Position numbers and translations under genes: made by a program. 64,000 nt of DNA from a virus. Shown here one piece after another: positions 14,614 through 63,048 of the stretch. Each line of letters opens with the position of its first letter. The first letter of the stretch is position 1. Location: IMG/VR virus record IMGVR_UViG_3300045988_106833, positions 12,326-76,325 of that record. One strand, given 5' to 3'. The notes below the pieces were generated by a model, which saw only the letters and a list, made by a program, of their open reading frames with translations, had not been told where the DNA came from and did not search any database.

Positions 14614-15144
14614 ATGAGAAGAAGATTTTTTAATGCTGCGGATAATTTTATGGGAGGATGTTATAATAAGTTATCTAATGAAGATATAAAAAGGCTTGGA
14701 GGAAAAAGACCTTATGTATGTTGGTTTAATAAAATTCATATACATATAGGGCCTGTATTAAAAGATCATGATTCCGATTATAGTTACATAATGTTTAATA
14801 GTGATTGGAATTATGGTGGTTATGACTCTGTGGTTTATCATCATAGCGATAATGGTATTTTTATATTAGGTGGAAACAAAATTGGTAATATAGAAGACCA
14901 TATACAAGATCTAACATATTGGTACGAATATGATCCAAGCATTAATAAAAATTATTGTTATTTTTATTATGAGGCTAATAACAGCGGAAATGCTATCAAG
15001 TTGAATGGTGAGTTTGCTAGTACCTGTACTGTTTTCAACATTCCCAGCTTGGAAGTCTCCACTCTTCGTGATGGCAGTTTGAGTTTTCCGGAGATTTATA
15101 TAGAAGGAGTTTGGGATCCGTCATTGTATAAATCAGTTTTATAA
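14614..15144 (+). CDS. hypothetical protein (176 aa) with an N-terminal MRRRF motif
   Basis: ATG at 14614 preceded by AAGGAG at 14598-14603. The ORF track extended it to a GTG at 14605. Confidence 0.55.
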   Translation: MRRRFFNAADNFMGGCYNKLSNEDIKRLGGKRPYVCWFNKIHIHIGPVLKDHDSDYSYIMFNSDWNYGGYDSVVYHHSDNGIFILGGNKIGNIEDHIQDLTYWYEYDPSINKNYCYFYYEANNSGNAIKLNGEFASTCTVFNIPSLEVSTLRDGSLSFPEIYIEGVWDPSLYKSVL

Positions 15145-17566: not shown

Positions 17567-17574
17567 TAAGTTTG
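17567..17574 (+). promoter_or_regulatory. -7 promoter motif TAagTTTG inside a 680-nt non-coding island
   Basis: TAnnTTTG match, upstream of the small ORF at 17649. Confidence 0.35.
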
Positions 17575-17648
17575 CAATATTAGTTTCAGGAAGGGATTAT
17601 GGAAATAAGGAAAAAGTAAGAACCGAACGTAACTAATAACAGTAGGAA

Positions 17649-21632: not shown

Positions 21633-22268
21633 ATGGTTAGAATCGCATATTTCGGAACCGATGGCTGCCCTGGTCATCACGTTATTCCAATACGAGGTAA
21701 ATTCACAGAAGAGGATATTAAGGTAATAGAATCTGTAGATTGTGATGATTTCTATAAGGTGTTTGATGTCATGCGTTTTAAGATAGCTGAGTTTAAAGGA
21801 TGGACGATATTAGGAATCCCGGCAAGCTTAGACGATCATAGACCTGGAAGCAAAACCGTTATCTTCATAGAGGGTAAAGCTAACGAAACTGACTTTATGG
21901 AAGTTATACAAGAGTATTCTTTTCTTAAAAATAAGGTAAAGAAACTTGCCGAATTGTATCATGATGGAGAATGGCTTGCGACTGGTAAATTGAATCAAGA
22001 TCCGCCTACTAACAAGGAGCGGTTTCAATTTACGTTAGACAAGGATGATATTATTAACATGATTAGGGGAGTCGATTTAGATCCTTATTCTGATGTGGCG
22101 AATGAAATGGAGAAAATCGGATTGGGATCATCATCTGATTCTTCATATGAGGGTCCCATATGGTCTTGGTTTGTTAACAAAGTAGAACTTTGGCAGAAGA
22201 ATAATGTATGGGATAGTTTCTCCGCTGAGTTTTTGTGGGGTTTGTATTGTAGGATAAAGAAAGTATAG
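21633..22268 (+). CDS. hypothetical protein (211 aa)
   Basis: ORF directly abutting the upstream stop. Confidence 0.55.
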   Translation: MVRIAYFGTDGCPGHHVIPIRGKFTEEDIKVIESVDCDDFYKVFDVMRFKIAEFKGWTILGIPASLDDHRPGSKTVIFIEGKANETDFMEVIQEYSFLKNKVKKLAELYHDGEWLATGKLNQDPPTNKERFQFTLDKDDIINMIRGVDLDPYSDVANEMEKIGLGSSSDSSYEGPIWSWFVNKVELWQKNNVWDSFSAEFLWGLYCRIKKV

Positions 22269-33454: not shown

Positions 33455-33688
33455 TTATTTCACTTTTACGATCTTAATAGAATCTCCGATATTGTATTCC
33501 CCTTGGTATCCAACGAATTTTATAAGCCTATTATTATAAAATATTGAAATTCTTTCGTCTTTACCATAATACATTATACATCCATCTTCTAAAGGACATA
33601 GATCATATATAACCCATCCGTTATTAACCTGATCATCATGCGAACATGATGATAACACAAGTGCCATCAATAAAATAAAATACCTCAT
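33455..33688 (-). CDS. small lipoprotein (77 aa)
   Basis: N-terminal MRYFILLMALVLSSCSHDD is a signal peptide with a lipobox-like LSSC. Confidence 0.55.
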   Translation of the reverse strand: MRYFILLMALVLSSCSHDDQVNNGWVIYDLCPLEDGCIMYYGKDERISIFYNNRLIKFVGYQGEYNIGDSIKIVKVK

Positions 33689-40352: not shown

Positions 40353-40676
40353 TTATTTTATATCAGTAATTAAAACATATATTTTAGCAATATCTTCAAG
40401 ACTCACAGAAGAACGTATATATAGTTTTTCTTCGTACTCATATAGAGCGTACCCTTCTTTTATGTCTAATATCTTAATCACATGCTTGCCTCTTTCAAAT
40501 GGATCATCAAAGTAGCTCTTATGTTCGTATCTTTGACCTACTTTGATTTTGTCAGTTTTCTTCTTCATCTTATAACGATCTACTGCTCTACCTGTTTTTA
40601 TGAAAGCTGTCGTGAGTAAGTATAATAAAACTAAATACAAAAGGATCGCTACTCCACATGTTAGATCTTCTTTCAT
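40353..40676 (-). CDS. small membrane protein (107 aa, one N-terminal TM helix)
   Basis: Hydrophobic VAILLYLVLLYLLTTAF. Confidence 0.5.
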   Translation of the reverse strand: MKEDLTCGVAILLYLVLLYLLTTAFIKTGRAVDRYKMKKKTDKIKVGQRYEHKSYFDDPFERGKHVIKILDIKEGYALYEYEEKLYIRSSVSLEDIAKIYVLITDIK

Positions 40677-50292: not shown

Positions 50293-50522
50293 ACTCTTCT
50301 TGTATTTCTGACCAATATAGGCATTATTGTTTCGATGGTCTTGCCATATTTCTTATGAGATGCAAGTACACATATTGCATATTTATCTCCTATTTTCAAA
50401 TCTTTCGATAATCTTAATCTTGAACCCCTTTTGATGTTAATAAAATAATCACCAAAAGGATTGATACATATCGGTTTTACGATTTCTATATAATCTCCTT
50501 CAGGAATAACAATATCGTTCAT
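50289..50522 (-). CDS. hypothetical protein (77 aa)
   Basis: ATGA-coupled on both sides. Confidence 0.45.
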   Translation of the reverse strand: MNDIVIPEGDYIEIVKPICINPFGDYFINIKRGSRLRLSKDLKIGDKYAICVLASHKKYGKTIETIMPILVRNTRRV

Positions 50523-51835
50523 ATTATGAATCTTTTAGACATTTCCTCTGCAATATCATACACGACCGTATGATCCTCTTCATTGTACGGCTTATTGATA
50601 TTCAGCACTCCTTTTCTCACTTTGAACTTCTTATCTTTTCTAAGGTGATTCAACATACCTTGTTGGAACACGCAGTCCGCCTTTTCAAGTGCTATACTGT
50701 CTTCTGTCCATTCTTTCAGCGTATATCCTTTGCTGCTCGTGCTTTTTGGAGAAAAGTTCATAATACGTGCATCAATCCCATACCATGCTTTAACCATTCT
50801 TCTTTCAGCTTCTAATTGAAATGCGTATGATTCCCATATTCCCCCTGATTTAAAGTCGAGAATAACCACTTCTTCCTTCTCCACTTCTCTTACCTCCTTC
50901 TTCGGATCACCTTTTTTAAACTGCCCTGTAGCCCTTTGATACACGGCTCCAAAATAACCTTCTTCTTTGTACTTGAATGTCATTTTAACCATCGCATCTA
51001 TCGGCGTAGCTACCAAATAGTCTTCTAATGACAATATTCTTTCAATCATCATCGGCTTAACCTTATACTCCGAACAAAACTTAGCAAACTTCATAACTCT
51101 GACAATCATATCGTCAAGATCATCTATGCTACCAAAGAATTTGTCAAGATTCTTTTTCGATATCTTCAGCTTGCCTTCTTGCACTGTCTTAACTATAAAA
51201 CTTCGATTTAAGACCATATCTCTACCTGTTAGGTACAATCCGTATAAGTAGTGCATGATCGTTCCCTTATCAGCTTCATACTGCGCCACCTCTTCCGGAT
51301 TGCGACCAAGCATCTTTATCTCTTGCTTCCATTCCTGAAGTGCGGTCTTATCATCTACATACCCATCTTTGATTAAGGTTGTTACTGAAGCATATATCTT
51401 GGCCGTTCCATCATCCATCTTCCTTACATAAAAACGATTATCGTCTAATGTCAATCTTACGAATTTGGGAGTCTCAATCTTCTTCAACTCATCGCAGATA
51501 TAAAACGGCTCTAACGTTTCTTGATTTTCTGTAAACGGATTCGAATCTTCCTCTCCAGGGTTAGGATCTGCTTCCTCTACCGGAGCTTCCGGTTCTTCTC
51601 CCTGGGCCTGCTCTGGCTCAGGCGCCGGCTCTTCAACTACTGGAACCTGTCCGCCTCTTTCTGCTATGTCTCTGTTCTTTATTAAAGACATAACCTCCTT
51701 CTTCAACTGCTCTGGTGTTTGATTAGGATTTGACACCGACATCACAACATCGTTCATTCTAAACAACGTATTTCCTTCTCCTTCCACCATAGGCGCAAAC
51801 CCTAAATCTGTCAATATTTTTATTTTCTCTTTCAT
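50519..51835 (-). CDS. hypothetical protein (438 aa): N-terminal domain, acidic Pro/Glu linker, C-terminal domain with possible PD-(D/E)XK-like motifs
   Basis: ORF track. ILDFKSGG and QLEAE are only weakly suggestive of a nuclease fold. Confidence 0.55.
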   Translation of the reverse strand: MKEKIKILTDLGFAPMVEGEGNTLFRMNDVVMSVSNPNQTPEQLKKEVMSLIKNRDIAERGGQVPVVEEPAPEPEQAQGEEPEAPVEEADPNPGEEDSNPFTENQETLEPFYICDELKKIETPKFVRLTLDDNRFYVRKMDDGTAKIYASVTTLIKDGYVDDKTALQEWKQEIKMLGRNPEEVAQYEADKGTIMHYLYGLYLTGRDMVLNRSFIVKTVQEGKLKISKKNLDKFFGSIDDLDDMIVRVMKFAKFCSEYKVKPMMIERILSLEDYLVATPIDAMVKMTFKYKEEGYFGAVYQRATGQFKKGDPKKEVREVEKEEVVILDFKSGGIWESYAFQLEAERRMVKAWYGIDARIMNFSPKSTSSKGYTLKEWTEDSIALEKADCVFQQGMLNHLRKDKKFKVRKGVLNINKPYNEEDHTVVYDIAEEMSKRFII

Positions 51836-52017
51836 GATCTTCCTCTAATCAATTCTTCTTTAATACAATGTAACACTGTTTCCACTTCATCTTTATCTCT
51901 ATCTTTCACTGCGATAGCTATATCCTTACCATAACTCTCTCTCTGTATGTGAGCATAAAAGATAGTTTCATTGTCAGCTTCTATTCTTATTTTATAAAGT
52001 TTTCTCATATCTGTCAA
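51832..52017 (-). CDS. hypothetical protein (61 aa)
   Basis: ATGA-coupled. Confidence 0.35.
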   Translation of the reverse strand: MTDMRKLYKIRIEADNETIFYAHIQRESYGKDIAIAVKDRDKDEVETVLHCIKEELIRGRS

Positions 52018-52516
52018 TTATTTCAATAATTAATCTACCTCTTTCTTTAATCATTCCCCTGCTTTCCATATCCAGTACCTTCTTTACCGCATACTTCCAC
52101 ACAAAAGGAAATTCTGTTTCAAGTTTATCAAATTCCATCCGGTCAAGATACATGTCGAATACCGTATGCTCCGATTCATGTAGGAAAACTATATTATCTC
52201 TGCAAGTAGCAACCGACTTATATATCCTTTTCGGAAGTATGTGACAGATGTTACATACTGTAGGAAAATGAATAGCCTTACCGGTCATAGACATTCGAAT
52301 AGTACTCAACTCCTCCAACATAAGACGAAAAAACCCGGATAAATCCGGGTTCTCTAACTTTTTCTTCTTGCTGCTGTTTTTAATGGATGTAATTCTGTTT
52401 TTTTTCTTCGGAGTCAACTCTTTGCTCCTGCAAGCCTGGCATAAGCCATGACTTCTTATCATCACTTTTCGTCCACATCGTTCGCAGACGTATAGCTTCT
52501 TTTCCTTGCTTTCCAT
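51992..52516 (-). CDS. zinc-ribbon protein (174 aa; CERCG...CQAC)
   Basis: ORF track. Confidence 0.5.
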   Translation of the reverse strand: MESKEKKLYVCERCGRKVMIRSHGLCQACRSKELTPKKKNRITSIKNSSKKKKLENPDLSGFFRLMLEELSTIRMSMTGKAIHFPTVCNICHILPKRIYKSVATCRDNIVFLHESEHTVFDMYLDRMEFDKLETEFPFVWKYAVKKVLDMESRGMIKERGRLIIEIIDRYEKTL

Positions 52517-52701
52517 TCGAATAATAATGATATTATTGAAAAGAACAATCCCGCTGAAGCCAGTAGATAAGGTACGTTCATTAATAATTTAGATACCTCG
52601 TCTGTCTTAATCACTATCAGAAGGAAAGCGCCTGCTGAAAGCAATGATATTATCGCCACAACAAGCGCTATGTTGGAAACTACATCAGCCTTACTCTTCA
52701 C
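52462..52701 (-). CDS. small membrane protein with two TM helices (79 aa; holin-like topology)
   Basis: Two hydrophobic segments and a charged C-terminus. Confidence 0.4.
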   Translation of the reverse strand: MKSKADVVSNIALVVAIISLLSAGAFLLIVIKTDEVSKLLMNVPYLLASAGLFFSIISLLFEWKARKRSYTSANDVDEK

Positions 52702-53161
52702 TCTTCTTCTCGCCTAATTTTTCAGCTCCCTTCTGAAGATCGTATTTGAATACGTCAATGATCTTCGTTTCAGCAATAGCTTCGCAATTCCAGTCTCCTA
52801 ACGTGCCCTGCATACCTTTAGTTAACACAGCCTCAGCGTCTTTCGGATTGCCGGCCTGGACATACATATAGCATGGCGTTTTCTTTTCTTTACCTTTCTT
52901 TTCATCCAGTGTAATGTAATTTACCTTACACTTATACCAGTACTCAGCTTCTCCGTTGAAGAAGATTTCCGACACTTTAATAGGATTTATTTTAACAATG
53001 TCGAACACTTGAAATAAATCCTTGAAAATCTCTAAAGATCTTGATTCTGCCTCTGTATAAGATAAGGCATCTACCAAATACTTTTCAGTTACTTTCTTTT
53101 TTTTGCCGTTCTCGATATTATCAATCTCGGCTTTTACCGTAATTTCAAACCAGCGATTCAT
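52691..53161 (-). CDS. hypothetical protein (156 aa)
   Basis: ORF track. Confidence 0.5.
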   Translation of the reverse strand: MNRWFEITVKAEIDNIENGKKKKVTEKYLVDALSYTEAESRSLEIFKDLFQVFDIVKINPIKVSEIFFNGEAEYWYKCKVNYITLDEKKGKEKKTPCYMYVQAGNPKDAEAVLTKGMQGTLGDWNCEAIAETKIIDVFKYDLQKGAEKLGEKKSEE

Positions 53162-53260
53162 TGTATTAATATTTAATTAGTTGATTTCTTTCCTTTCTCT
53201 ATACTATTTTTAAATCTTTCAGAACACCACTGCAAAACGTCCATCATCATCATTTCATTA

Positions 53261-54139
53261 TTAGATAAGATGCCTTTTATAACTAACGCCAGAAGAGTGA
53301 CTAAGATCGGAAACTTTCTTTCCCCACAAACGTTTCATCCCTTCAATGTTTAGATCTTCAATAAAAATATAATCATATTGTTTACACAAATCATGAGCTA
53401 ATTTCCATTGAAAGTCTGATCGAAGATCGTTTATTTTACGATACTTTTGTTGGAGTTCAAACAGTCTCCTTCTTCTATTGTTAGATCCTTTCTTTGCATT
53501 AGAAAGCCGTTTGTTTAGTTTTCTAATCTTGTTTTGATATTGTTTGAAGAATAGAGGAGATCCAATTTTGCTACCATCGCTTTTAGTTAGATAAGTTTTC
53601 AGACCAAAATCCAATCCTATAGATGCACCATCATGTGTCTTTCTATAAGAGTTTGAATGATTATGATCTGTAATTATAATCAAACTAAAACGTGAACAGG
53701 TTTCTCTAACTATTCTTATTTGCTTAACATTACCTTCATAAGGTCTACTGTATGAGAATCTAAATCGTTTGTTTCCTTTGTTAATTGTTAAACAATTACC
53801 ATTCAGGGTAAAACCACCTTGTTTGAATACAAAAGAATTGAATTTCTCCGGTGATTTAAACTTAGGAGGTCGTTTAGCCAACTTCTTAAAGAAACGATTA
53901 TAAGATTCATCAAGACGCTCAAGTATTTCTTGTGTTGTTTGAGAATGAAGAAGATTTCTTTTAATTCTTTTGGTAAAATGTTTCTTCATCTTACCAATTG
54001 ATATATATTTCCCAAACAGTTTGTAATACCTACGTTGTAGAGCTAAAGCATGATTCCATACAAAACAACATTCACGAAGCATCTTGTCTAGATACTTCGT
54101 TTTCTTTGAATGATAGATGTTGTATTTGTATGAAATCAT
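53261..54139 (-). pseudogene. tnpB: C-terminally truncated IS200/IS605-family TnpB (OrfB) homolog (292 aa)
   Basis: RuvC-I (IGLDFGLKTY) and RuvC-II (IFIEDLNIEGM) are present, plus the Arg-rich linker. The ORF stops after WGKKVSDLSHS. The 100 nt before the next gene contain no RuvC-III or zinc-finger segment in any frame (checked by hand). No TnpA is adjacent. Confidence 0.7.
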
Positions 54140-54234
54140 TTTTTTATCTGTAATTTTGATTCAAAATTAATCAACCCAATTCATCCACCTTCTAAAGTAT
54201 GGTGATTTTGTTGGTTAAATAATCATAAAATAGC

Positions 54235-54549
54235 TCATTGTGATAAGTGATTTTGTTTTATGTTAGGTAAGTAATTTGTAATAACATCAAGTGATATCCA
54301 TAACTCTGGCTCTATGCTGTTTTTTATTCTATCACTGAAAAGAGAATTATCATCACAATCACAATGAGAGATTGTGATATAACAATCTTGATAATCCCAC
54401 CAATGGGCTGATTTAAAATCGTCCCCTCCATTCCAAAACCCTATTCTTATACCTCTTGGGTTGAAATCTTCATCTATCCAACTTGGATGGTAAGCCAACA
54501 CTTCTTCTCCCTCTGGAGGTTTTTCCTCTTTAAATTTCTTCCAGTTCAT
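54235..54549 (-). CDS. hypothetical protein (104 aa), possibly DUF551-like
   Basis: The N-terminal W..F..E.PPEGEEVL pattern is seen in phage DUF551 proteins. Recalled only weakly. Confidence 0.4.
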   Translation of the reverse strand: MNWKKFKEEKPPEGEEVLAYHPSWIDEDFNPRGIRIGFWNGGDDFKSAHWWDYQDCYITISHCDCDDNSLFSDRIKNSIEPELWISLDVITNYLPNIKQNHLSQ

Positions 54550-54622
54550 TTTTTCTTTAATTAATTAAGTACAAATATAAAAGTTTAACATGCTACCACG
54601 CCTAAATTTTGTTAAATTATAT

Positions 54623-54967
54623 TTATTTATCCCCAATCTTTTTAATCTTTGTTGGTCTTGACAATCGATAATCCTTTTCTATCGGTCTACCGAATACGTT
54701 ATTCCTATATCCTTTATATCCTTTCTCGTAAACGCTAACCCTTGCGCAGAACTCAACCACATCTCCCGGTAATAAATCAGCGTTTTTGAATCCTTTTGTC
54801 AAATCAAACCACAAATGGTCTGTTACTACTTTACCATCGAGTAACACGTCTTGTAAAAGTATTGTCTTTACAGGCCCTTTATACCCATCCCTGAATCCAA
54901 AACGAATGAATGTCGCTGTAAATACGTGCCGATCTCTTGATCCTATTATTTTCAGTTCTTTTCTCAT
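54623..54967 (-). CDS. hypothetical protein (114 aa)
   Basis: ORF track. Confidence 0.45.
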   Translation of the reverse strand: MRKELKIIGSRDRHVFTATFIRFGFRDGYKGPVKTILLQDVLLDGKVVTDHLWFDLTKGFKNADLLPGDVVEFCARVSVYEKGYKGYRNNVFGRPIEKDYRLSRPTKIKKIGDK

Positions 54968-54973
54968 TCTCTT

Positions 54974-55780
54974 TCATTTATTTGTTTCACTTATGAAATT
55001 GACAACATCCTTTAGATATCCTTCTGTCATCTCTATGAAATTCACACAATCCAATTTGCTTAATTTGTAAATCAATGCCGGATTGTGTACTATGGCTATA
55101 ATTTGTGTTTGTGGTTTATGGAATGATAATACATTATAAATTTGCATTATGTTGTCAATGTCAAGATTCCTGTCCGGCTCATCCATGAGAACCGTGTATT
55201 CAAAACTGCTTTTTGTTAATGTTATACGGTTTCTTTTGTAATACTTCAACAGATTATCAATTCTTTTAATCCAAAACGTATTTGTTTTTTTCTTGTATTC
55301 TACAAGATCTTGTATTGGAAATGTATAATCCTTTTGGCCGAACATTAAATTAAAAAGTGATTCCAATGATAACACCACTTTCTCTCCATAAGATCTTCGA
55401 ATATTATTCACATACAAATCGAAATTGCTGATGTTTTTCAATACGTCATTTCGATTCGTTTCCGTTGATGGCAATAAACGGAATACTTTCCCTTCATAAT
55501 CAGATGATATGTCAATCCCATCAAGAACCTTGTCATTATCATCAAATATGGGTGGAAAGTCCAGCGCTTCGATCGGCATTTCAGAGCACATGGATTTCTC
55601 GCATAACGCATACATTGATATGATGTTAAGCAAGGTTGATTTTCCACTACCGTTTTTACCTATAATTACATTCACTCCTGGCTTGAAAATAAATTCTCTG
55701 CCATTTTCAAATGCTTCTATATTAGAAACGTATTCAAATGGAGTTTTTGTATTGTCTTTTATTTTTACCGATGTTATCAT
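54974..55780 (-). CDS. minimal ABC-type ATPase of the SMC/RecF/Rad50-like kind (268 aa)
   Basis: Walker A NVIIGKNGSGKSTLL, signature-like RSYGEKVVLSL, Walker B TVLMDEPDRNLD, and H-loop AIVHNP. No coiled-coil insertion. Confidence 0.7.
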   Translation of the reverse strand: MITSVKIKDNTKTPFEYVSNIEAFENGREFIFKPGVNVIIGKNGSGKSTLLNIISMYALCEKSMCSEMPIEALDFPPIFDDNDKVLDGIDISSDYEGKVFRLLPSTETNRNDVLKNISNFDLYVNNIRRSYGEKVVLSLESLFNLMFGQKDYTFPIQDLVEYKKKTNTFWIKRIDNLLKYYKRNRITLTKSSFEYTVLMDEPDRNLDIDNIMQIYNVLSFHKPQTQIIAIVHNPALIYKLSKLDCVNFIEMTEGYLKDVVNFISETNK

Positions 55781-60206: not shown

Positions 60207-60611
60207 CTACTTAACCTCAACTAATTCTACAGAGTTGTAGAATTTAGTGAAGCTACCAACAAATTCTCTTATATTTTTATATTCTTCTGGTCGTTTTCTG
60301 TTACCGTCTTTTATGTAATTTACCCACAATCTATCCTCTATGCTCTTAATCGCATTCTCTATAGTAAATTCGTCGCTGACACACATTAAGCACGAAGACC
60401 CGGTTTTCTTATGTGGTTTATATACCCTTGAAAAAGACCACATTTTTATCCTGTCGTATATATATCCGTTGTTGGGATAAACGAATCCTATCCGGCTGTC
60501 ACCTTCTTTGGCGTAAAACACACCTGGTTCCTTTCCGCCTTTCTTATACACAATAAATCCTTTTTCTTTTAAGATCTTAGCTATCTTATTTATCTTGTTC
60601 TCTACGTTCAT
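60207..60611 (-). CDS. hypothetical protein (134 aa)
   Basis: ORF track. Confidence 0.5.
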   Translation of the reverse strand: MNVENKINKIAKILKEKGFIVYKKGGKEPGVFYAKEGDSRIGFVYPNNGYIYDRIKMWSFSRVYKPHKKTGSSCLMCVSDEFTIENAIKSIEDRLWVNYIKDGNRKRPEEYKNIREFVGSFTKFYNSVELVEVK

Positions 60612-62265: not shown

Positions 62266-63048
62266 TTAAATACTTAACTCTTCAATGGTCAAGCCTTTTT
62301 CTTTTGCCCACTTTAGCATCGCGCATAATTCTGTTTCTGACTTATATTTCGGATCACGCCACGCCCATCCGAATTTATCCAGGACATGATGATATAATTC
62401 GTCGGCCTTTGCCGTGTAAATGTCTTTGAATAAATGCTCCGAACCTTCTGGTATAAGCATCTCTGTTGTTGCAAAATCGGAATACGACAAACATCCGTAA
62501 GCATATTCTGTTATTTCACTCCACGCTTCTCCGGCTTTAAATCCAAATTCTTTTACAAAAGCCAAAGTTAGATACATATTTAATAATATTGTTACATCAT
62601 ATCCAGAATCCGACTTTCTTTCTATTATTTTCTTTTCAAATTCCTTTAAATCTTCAGGCCCTAAAAAGATGTATCCTGATACCGACCGATAATTAGCCTC
62701 CGCATACTTCTTGCATTTATCATCATTAATAATCTTACCAATGTTAGATAACATCTTTTGCCTCCATTCATCACAAAACTCTATCCTTACATCCATCCAA
62801 TCAGTACCATAATTGCGATCTTTTGGATGTCCGACCGATATTACCTTTATGTTATTCACACCATATTCATAAAGGCGTTCGCCCACCTTATCCGCCCATT
62901 CCTGTACAAAAGGAATAAACTTATTGCAATAAGAATCAAAATCAAAATCTAATTCCTCCTCATATTCCGGCATCTCTTCATAATCTTGTTCAAAGAAATA
63001 TCGAGGATCTGCTATTGTTTCATAGAAACTTACGTTAATAATTGTCAC
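62266..63048 (-). CDS. hypothetical acidic protein (260 aa; GTG start in the ORF track)
   Basis: Long ORF. Its start overlaps the end of the upstream micro-ORF. Confidence 0.55.
   Translation of the reverse strand: MTIINVSFYETIADPRYFFEQDYEEMPEYEEELDFDFDSYCNKFIPFVQEWADKVGERLYEYGVNNIKVISVGHPKDRNYGTDWMDVRIEFCDEWRQKMLSNIGKIINDDKCKKYAEANYRSVSGYIFLGPEDLKEFEKKIIERKSDSGYDVTILLNMYLTLAFVKEFGFKAGEAWSEITEYAYGCLSYSDFATTEMLIPEGSEHLFKDIYTAKADELYHHVLDKFGWAWRDPKYKSETELCAMLKWAKEKGLTIEELSI

Follow-up and report, generated by a model that had tools for sequence, protein, structure and literature searches.

The truncated tnpB gene of a gut Epsilon crAss-like phage is most probably the immobile stump of a decayed IS200/IS605-type element

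Overview of the locus

For the truncated tnpB gene at positions 53261-54139 of the window (the whole stretch of 64,000 nucleotides that was analysed), the best explanation, to which we assign a probability of about 0.9, is the left-hand stump, immobile and non-functional, of a tnpB-only IS200/IS605-type element, produced by one deletion. [quoted passage not shown] A single illegitimate event at 1 nt of microhomology, deleting about 1.83 kb, would have taken the 3' part of the element together with phage genes, after which the ORF would read nine codons into the remnant of an 84-aa gene and then stop. The stump cannot cut DNA since its catalytic triad is incomplete, cannot be guided since no omega-RNA is left, and cannot be mobilised since the right end is gone. 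The initial annotation, made from the letters of the window, had considered a decayed insertion sequence to be the simplest explanation; the comparison with sister phages that hold the intact element at the same site bears this out and assigns the decay to a single deletion of 1832 bp. The features of the locus are as follows, in the direction of transcription.

54235..54549, minus strand: upstream backbone gene of 104 aa, no family match, not part of the element
54140-54234: spacer of 95 nt between the ORF and the upstream 104-aa gene
54225..54229, minus strand: target/TAM pentanucleotide TTTAT, immediately 5' of the left end
54140..54224, minus strand: intact left end (LE) and 5' leader, 85 nt
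53261..54139, minus strand: truncated tnpB ORF of 292 aa, as called
53291..54139, minus strand: TnpB-derived codons 1-283 (N-terminal part through RuvC-I D177 and RuvC-II E261), delimited by profiles and relatives
53290..53291, no strand: deletion junction, element ...CACTCTTCT / GGCGTTAGTTAT... phage gene, with one shared T
53261..53290, minus strand: nine foreign codons (GVSYKRHLI) and stop, out of frame with the phage gene remnant
53173..53291, minus strand: 3' remnant of the 84-aa phage gene, 119 nt including the stop (2 nt of codon 46, codons 47-84)
53162-53260: spacer of 99 nt between the ORF and the DUF4494 gene
52691..53161, minus strand: downstream backbone gene (DUF4494), not part of the element

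The truncated ORF and its assignment to TnpB

The 292-aa protein was matched by NF040570 guided_TnpB of NCBIfam (E value 8.8e-43, 147 bits, cut-off 100), by Pfam OrfB_IS605 (PF01385; E value 8e-19, 68.4 bits, cut-off 30.5) and by PHROG 506 'transposase' (E value 6e-59), in agreement with its first reading as a truncated TnpB. The NF040570 match spans profile positions 1-318 of 389 only, and the zinc-ribbon/TNB domain PF07282 had no match in the protein in the Pfam profile search. The catalytic residues D177 (GLDFG) and E261 (IFIEDL) are retained, so the RuvC-I and RuvC-II motifs are indeed intact as first noted; aligned via the full-length relative P0001, they correspond to the first two catalytic acids of ISDra2 TnpB (PDB 8EXA/8BF8, E value 3e-28).

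The protein tracks its 379-aa relatives to residue 283 and then runs into nine unrelated residues (...SDLSHSS-GVSYKRHLI) followed by TAA TAA TGA, stopping 96 aa short of the relatives, close to the loss of about 100 aa estimated at first. With this part, the third catalytic Asp (NDRD, residues about 339-342 of the 379-aa relatives) was deleted, leaving the D-E-D triad incomplete, and the CxxC...CxxC zinc finger is absent from the window protein in the alignment to relatives. Within the 283 TnpB codons there is no internal stop or frameshift.

A frameshifted continuation, which had not been seen by eye either, was absent from the three-frame translation downstream of the ORF. When full-length relatives served as tblastn queries on the whole window, the matches covered only residues 1 to about 283-286, and the family HMM found nothing past the same residues in the six-frame translation of the whole window. 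The breakpoint can thus be placed after residue 283, at the junction 53290/53291. In addition, tblastn and the family HMM detected no second TnpB in the window, and no orphan omega-RNA was found there; the window covers 64 kb of a roughly 140-kb genome, and the rest of that genome may hold a second intact copy that could supply omega-RNA in trans.

Phage backbone and the empty site

The backbone of the window can be assigned by sequence similarity to a gut Epsilon crAss-like phage. Positions 50518-53292 are 90% identical to csAssE-Sib (OR575929.1), and positions 54220-54586 and 55011-55768 are 93-95% identical to it. TnpB-family 'transposases', two of them in some Epsilonunovirus genomes, have been reported with crAssE-Sib (Viruses 2024, PMC11054128). 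At the site of the window copy, csAssE-Sib carries no TnpB element, and the sequence of this empty site is GCTATTTTAT / ATTAATGG. The tnpB-specific DNA of the window (about 53291-54224) stands where csAssE-Sib has 3.7 kb of small genes.

Two further segments of the backbone vary between these phages. Positions 54587-55010 of the window form a 424-bp presence/absence segment with a single 114-aa ORF (54623..54967, minus strand; no Pfam or PHROG match), which is found in the window and in L069 and is precisely missing from csAssE-Sib (L001), L023 and L040. At positions 14627-15136, between a gene for a protein of roughly 2200 aa and a lysozyme-like gene, the window has a 510-bp segment with no TnpB, where L006 (5848-7376) and L002 (6001-8670) have a 379-aa TnpB element unrelated to that segment; in L002, a second, unrelated 449-aa TnpB directly follows the 379-aa TnpB element.

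The intact element in sister phages

A protein search returned more than 1800 relatives of the window TnpB. The closest ones are uniformly 379 aa long, up to 95% identical and mostly located on contigs of 140-160 kb, and they have both PF01385 and PF07282, a CECG...CPACG zinc finger and the RuvC-III motif NDRDVLAARNI. In IMG/VR, 324 encoded relatives were counted, abundant in Epsilon crAss-like phages of about 150 kb, and 80 of these loci were fetched for comparison. The initial annotation advised looking for full-length copies elsewhere in the phage or its host; in sister phages such copies exist in number, two of them (L023 and L069) at the very site of the window copy.

When copies at different sites were compared, the mobile unit was found to consist of an 85-nt left end/leader, a 1140-nt ORF and 17 nt past the stop codon, with the 3' terminus ...TCCCATTTGCTTTAGCGATGGGAGTATGTCAA. 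No tnpA was found inside about 80 full-length copies and no Y1_Tnp match in the ORFs neighbouring the window stump, so the initial statement that there is no TnpA stands for the locus and its neighbouring ORFs. In all canonical copies, NTTAT precedes GATTATTTAAC, the start of the left end. The guide was taken as the right-end flank of a copy and matched in genomes without that copy; TTAT or TTAC stands before 15 of 18 distinct guide-matching sites in element-free genomes, against a per-position background of 1.4%. The family is accordingly classified, on these features, as a canonical tnpB-only IS200/IS605-type element with a TTAY TAM.

Over its last 180 nt the element hardly varies, synonymous positions included, and the consensus fold of this stretch has 58 pairs, 9 of which show compensatory changes (for example CCCATTTGC...GCGATGGG versus CCCACCGCC...GGCGTGGG in the terminal hairpin), indicating that an omega-RNA scaffold is embedded in the 3' end of the ORF. 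In L023 (3978-4157) and at the corresponding positions of 23 further loci, the scaffold overlaps roughly the final 160 nt of the ORF. A long-range helix of this RNA pairs TGATGT, about 140 nt upstream, with the terminal ATGTCA.

Not all members of the family are alike at the 5' side. About 18 full-length copies and L087 (loci L015, L022, L024, L026, L028, L029, L034, L037, L046, L048, L065, L068, L079 and L082-L087) have an entirely different 5' leader and are homologous to the reference only from element positions 84-88 onwards, directly ahead of the ATG. A terminator-like hairpin, GCCCCTGCTTTTAAGCAGGGG, precedes this leader in many of these copies; their right-end flanks nevertheless vary. 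The different leader may represent a variant of the left end, or else a fixed form with a swapped promoter.

In addition, copies with a common left-end flank often differ in the right-end flank (L023 versus L001 7226-9346, L069 versus L001 9237-9346, L040/L042 versus window 54259-54450), and L053, L055 and L062 have the left flank of L002 with a different right flank. The DNA absent between the mismatched flanks is bounded by two TTAY sites. This pattern resembles the outcome of recombination between two copies in direct orientation, or of TAM-to-TAM events that occurred repeatedly, and such flank recombination would make the element a recurrent source of deletions in phage accessory regions.

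Left end and leader of the window copy

In the window copy, the left end and its TTTAT are kept and the right end is deleted. The TTTAT and the start of the element lie a few nt past the stop codon of the upstream 104-aa gene. Compared with L002, L006, L023 and L040, the left end and leader show 91-95% identity, and they fold into two small conserved hairpins, of the CACCA...TGGTG and TTGATT...AATCAA types; one left-end hairpin resembles the right-end hairpin, with a weak match of 54186-54204 to model positions 151-169. The earlier impression that there were no obvious terminal hairpins thus applies to the right end, which is missing, and fails for the left end (54140-54224), where conserved hairpins are present. 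The inverted-repeat scan of the locus returned only short, unremarkable pairs.

The -7 promoter consensus of Bacteroidota is TAnnTTTG, and the leader contains TAATTTTG, which we take to fit this consensus as a putative promoter element. A sigma-70 promoter and terminator scan, ill-suited to promoters of the Bacteroidota type, gave nothing above shuffled expectation at the locus. The genes around the stump are all co-oriented, and the truncated protein may still be made, either from the leader of the element or by read-through of the co-oriented operon.

A deletion of 1832 bp accounts for the truncation

In L023 (IMGVR_UViG_3300045988_113203) and L069, a full-length copy lies behind an identical 5' flank, ...CACTTATCACAATGAGCTATTTTAT / GATTATTTAAC. 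By BLAST, L023 2553-3849 corresponds to window 54586-53291 (94.9% identity) and L023 5682-6972 to window 53291-52001 (98.3%). Both blocks are collinear and meet at window position 53291, so that exactly 1832 bp (L023 3850-5681) are missing from the window. On the side of the element, the last 308 bp were lost, and with them codons 284-379, all of the omega-RNA, the right end and the guide. On the side of the phage, three genes (82, 67 and 221 aa) disappeared, along with codons 1-45 of the 84-aa gene; the deleted phage genes had no Pfam or PHROG match.

The single T shared at the junction points to illegitimate recombination. A TAM-to-TAM origin of the deletion was considered and rejected, as the left break falls within the ORF and the sequence preceding the right break is CAAT instead of TTAY. 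An internal TTTAT is located just 3' of the left break; since TTAT occurs at about 1% of positions, it was treated as a chance occurrence.

The 84-aa gene is the homologue of csAssE-Sib WOZ57362, and its remnant in the window reads, in its own frame, ...LVIKGILSNNEMMMMDVLQWCSERFKNSIEKGKKSTN*. The last nine codons of the ORF and the tail of 100 nt consist of this remnant, out of frame with the ORF, and then a short spacer before the DUF4494 gene, which begins after the 99-nt interval already described as about 100 nt. The tail DNA is 88-98% identical to csAssE-Sib and L023.

No guide RNA is left at the locus

The initial annotation had singled out the tail at 53161-53260 as worth checking for an omega-RNA-like structure. 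Rfam, searched over 52000-55500 at a permissive threshold, gave no match, and it gave none on the 3' end of an intact full-length copy either; since Rfam (Rfam 15) is blind even to the intact omega-RNA, its negative result at the locus is uninformative. A family covariance model, R1, was therefore built from 24 full-length copies. On four full-length copies that had not been used to build it (L002, L015, L040 and L069) the model scored 198-220 bits, and on the more diverged, frameshifted copy L087 it scored 160 bits. Against the whole 64-kb window its best score was 6.5 bits (E value 2.6), and at 52500-54800 with filters off the best score was 2.8 bits. The RNA of the tail (53150-53300, minus strand) has a folding energy of -17.3 kcal/mol, compared with a mean of -22.6 for shuffled sequences (z +1.61), and is less structured than chance. 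There is no omega-RNA left at the window locus, and the proposal of a guide RNA in the tail is not supported: the tail is phage gene remnant and spacer.

These results bear directly on the idea that the gene is a domesticated, nuclease-dead TnpB of the TldR kind, with a local guide RNA directing it to repress a promoter of the phage or host. In keeping with such a role, the zinc finger and RuvC-III are gone and the N-terminal two-thirds are intact, as in many TldRs (PMC10705468), and the ORF is open and phage-encoded. However, the omega-RNA lay wholly within the deleted 308 bp, none is detected in the window by R1 (Rfam being empty as well), and the tail is what remains of a phage gene, with no structure. 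The left end has been retained, which is not the case at TldR loci, no conserved new gene association is seen, sister phages have an intact nuclease at the same site, and the allele is limited to near-clonal contigs. A TldR-like regulator is therefore extremely improbable. Loss of the C-terminus by itself would nevertheless be no proof of full inactivity, by analogy with truncated TldRs, which keep RNA-guided DNA binding (PMC10705468).

Age and distribution of the truncated allele

The identical 292-aa protein was found on 10 Logan/ENA contigs and, under a different (shorter) start call, on 3 JGI contigs. The fetched contigs with the allele come from several samples and different assemblers and are 99.98-100% identical to the window over 2.7-6 kb. 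The exact deletion junction was not found in IMG/VR or JGI metagenome contigs. An assembly or sequencing artefact, in which an otherwise intact tnpB had been broken by a chimeric join or by a frameshift error, was also weighed, as metagenome-assembled phage genomes can misjoin at repeated elements and the relative L087 has only a frameshift in an A-run. The occurrence of the same protein and context, at this identity, in several samples and assemblers excludes an assembly artefact, and no C-terminal coding sequence or omega-RNA lies downstream in any frame, so that the probability left to an artefact of either sort is practically nil. The same distribution indicates a near-clonal lineage and not deep conservation.

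Over 846 nt (codons 1-282), the window copy has 2 private substitutions, 0 synonymous and 2 non-synonymous. So few substitutions indicate that the deletion is recent, and the open frame needs no selective explanation; they are too few to judge selection on the stump either way. The ORF is thus probably open only because the deletion is recent, and the truncated protein, if made, is probably without function.

Other members of the family have decayed in other ways. In L089 (P0133; L089 4001-4870), an independent 3' truncation at element position 961 left a copy without omega-RNA. In L087 (P0097; L087 4001-5158), a one-base frameshift lies in an A-run and the omega-RNA is intact. In P0117 (244 aa), an internal deletion joins residue 222 to the omega-RNA terminus, resulting in a miniature derivative of left end plus right end. 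This independent and varied decay fits the ordinary erosion of a selfish element.

Guide matches in the window

Guides of sister-phage copies have perfect (20/20) matches in the window at 17567-17586, 22089-22108, 33470-33489, 40464-40483, 54451-54470, 62557-62576 and 60211-60230 on the plus strand and at 62563-62582 on the minus strand. TTAT or TTAC directly precedes 7 of these 8 matches, against a background of 1.4% per position. Sibling TnpB-omega-RNA complexes should, judging from these matches, be able to cut the empty TAM-plus-target sites of the window, in keeping with homing between co-infecting phages.

The exposure of the window to cleavage by sister phages, through 7 perfect 20-nt guide matches after TTAY, is one argument for a dominant-negative decoy. 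Here the stump protein, kept at least transiently, would load the omega-RNAs of intact elements from co-infecting sister phages, or of a second intact element of its own phage, and would shield TAM-target sites without cutting them; if true, the homing element itself would have given rise to a defence against homing. Binding of guide RNA and DNA persists in truncated TldRs (PMC10705468), and in the window copy the leader and ORF are intact and the protein is up to 95% identical to active copies. Against this, there is no sign of selection (2 private substitutions, near-clonal distribution), the breakpoint is an arbitrary illegitimate junction that destroyed four phage genes as well, and the other decayed copies are heterogeneous (frameshift, internal deletion, a different 3' break) and not convergent. 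In addition, the decoy would require a protein cut inside the RuvC domain to fold and to bind RNA. We therefore regard the decoy as very unlikely and retain the decayed stump as the explanation of the locus.

Significance

The stump should be annotated as a tnpB fragment or pseudogene and not as a transposase or regulator. In itself it matters little, being a textbook decayed insertion sequence, and it provides a clean negative for screens of shortened TnpB proteins as RNA-guided regulators. Comparison with sister genomes, together with a test for the family's own omega-RNA, settles such cases quickly.

The surrounding family is moderately interesting, as a very active tnpB-only element with many insertion sites in gut Epsilon crAss-like phages. 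The TAM-adjacent guide matches in element-free sister genomes fit TnpB-driven homing or retention between co-infecting phages, and the family could serve as a natural system for studying these processes.

Comparison with known systems

At TldR loci a guide RNA is kept beside the gene and the transposon ends have disappeared, and TldRs show clade-wide conservation with a fixed gene partner, fliC or oppF (PMC10705468). The window copy resembles them in its truncated RuvC domain, its lost C-terminus and its location on a phage, and differs from them in having no guide RNA, a retained left end, and neither a conserved clade nor a fixed partner gene.

The TnpB genes of Epsilon crAss-like phages (PMC11054128) occur in the same phage group, with a backbone about 90% identical to OR575929.1. 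That paper gives no description of the ends, TAM, omega-RNA or decay products of these genes. Compared with csAssE-Sib, the site is empty there and holds a truncated copy in the window.

The full-length relatives align with ISDra2 TnpB (PDB 8EXA/8BF8/8H1J) over residues 11-352 with an E value of 3e-28. Like IS1341-type tnpB-only elements, they have the D-E-D triad, CxxC...CxxC, an omega-RNA that overlaps the ORF at its 3' end and a subterminal hairpin at either end of the element; they are inserted 3' of TTAY, which is the TAM. The window copy, unlike IS1341-type elements, is without the third Asp, zinc finger, omega-RNA and right end, as a pseudogene-like stump; what it shares with its full-length relatives is the left end and residues 1-283.
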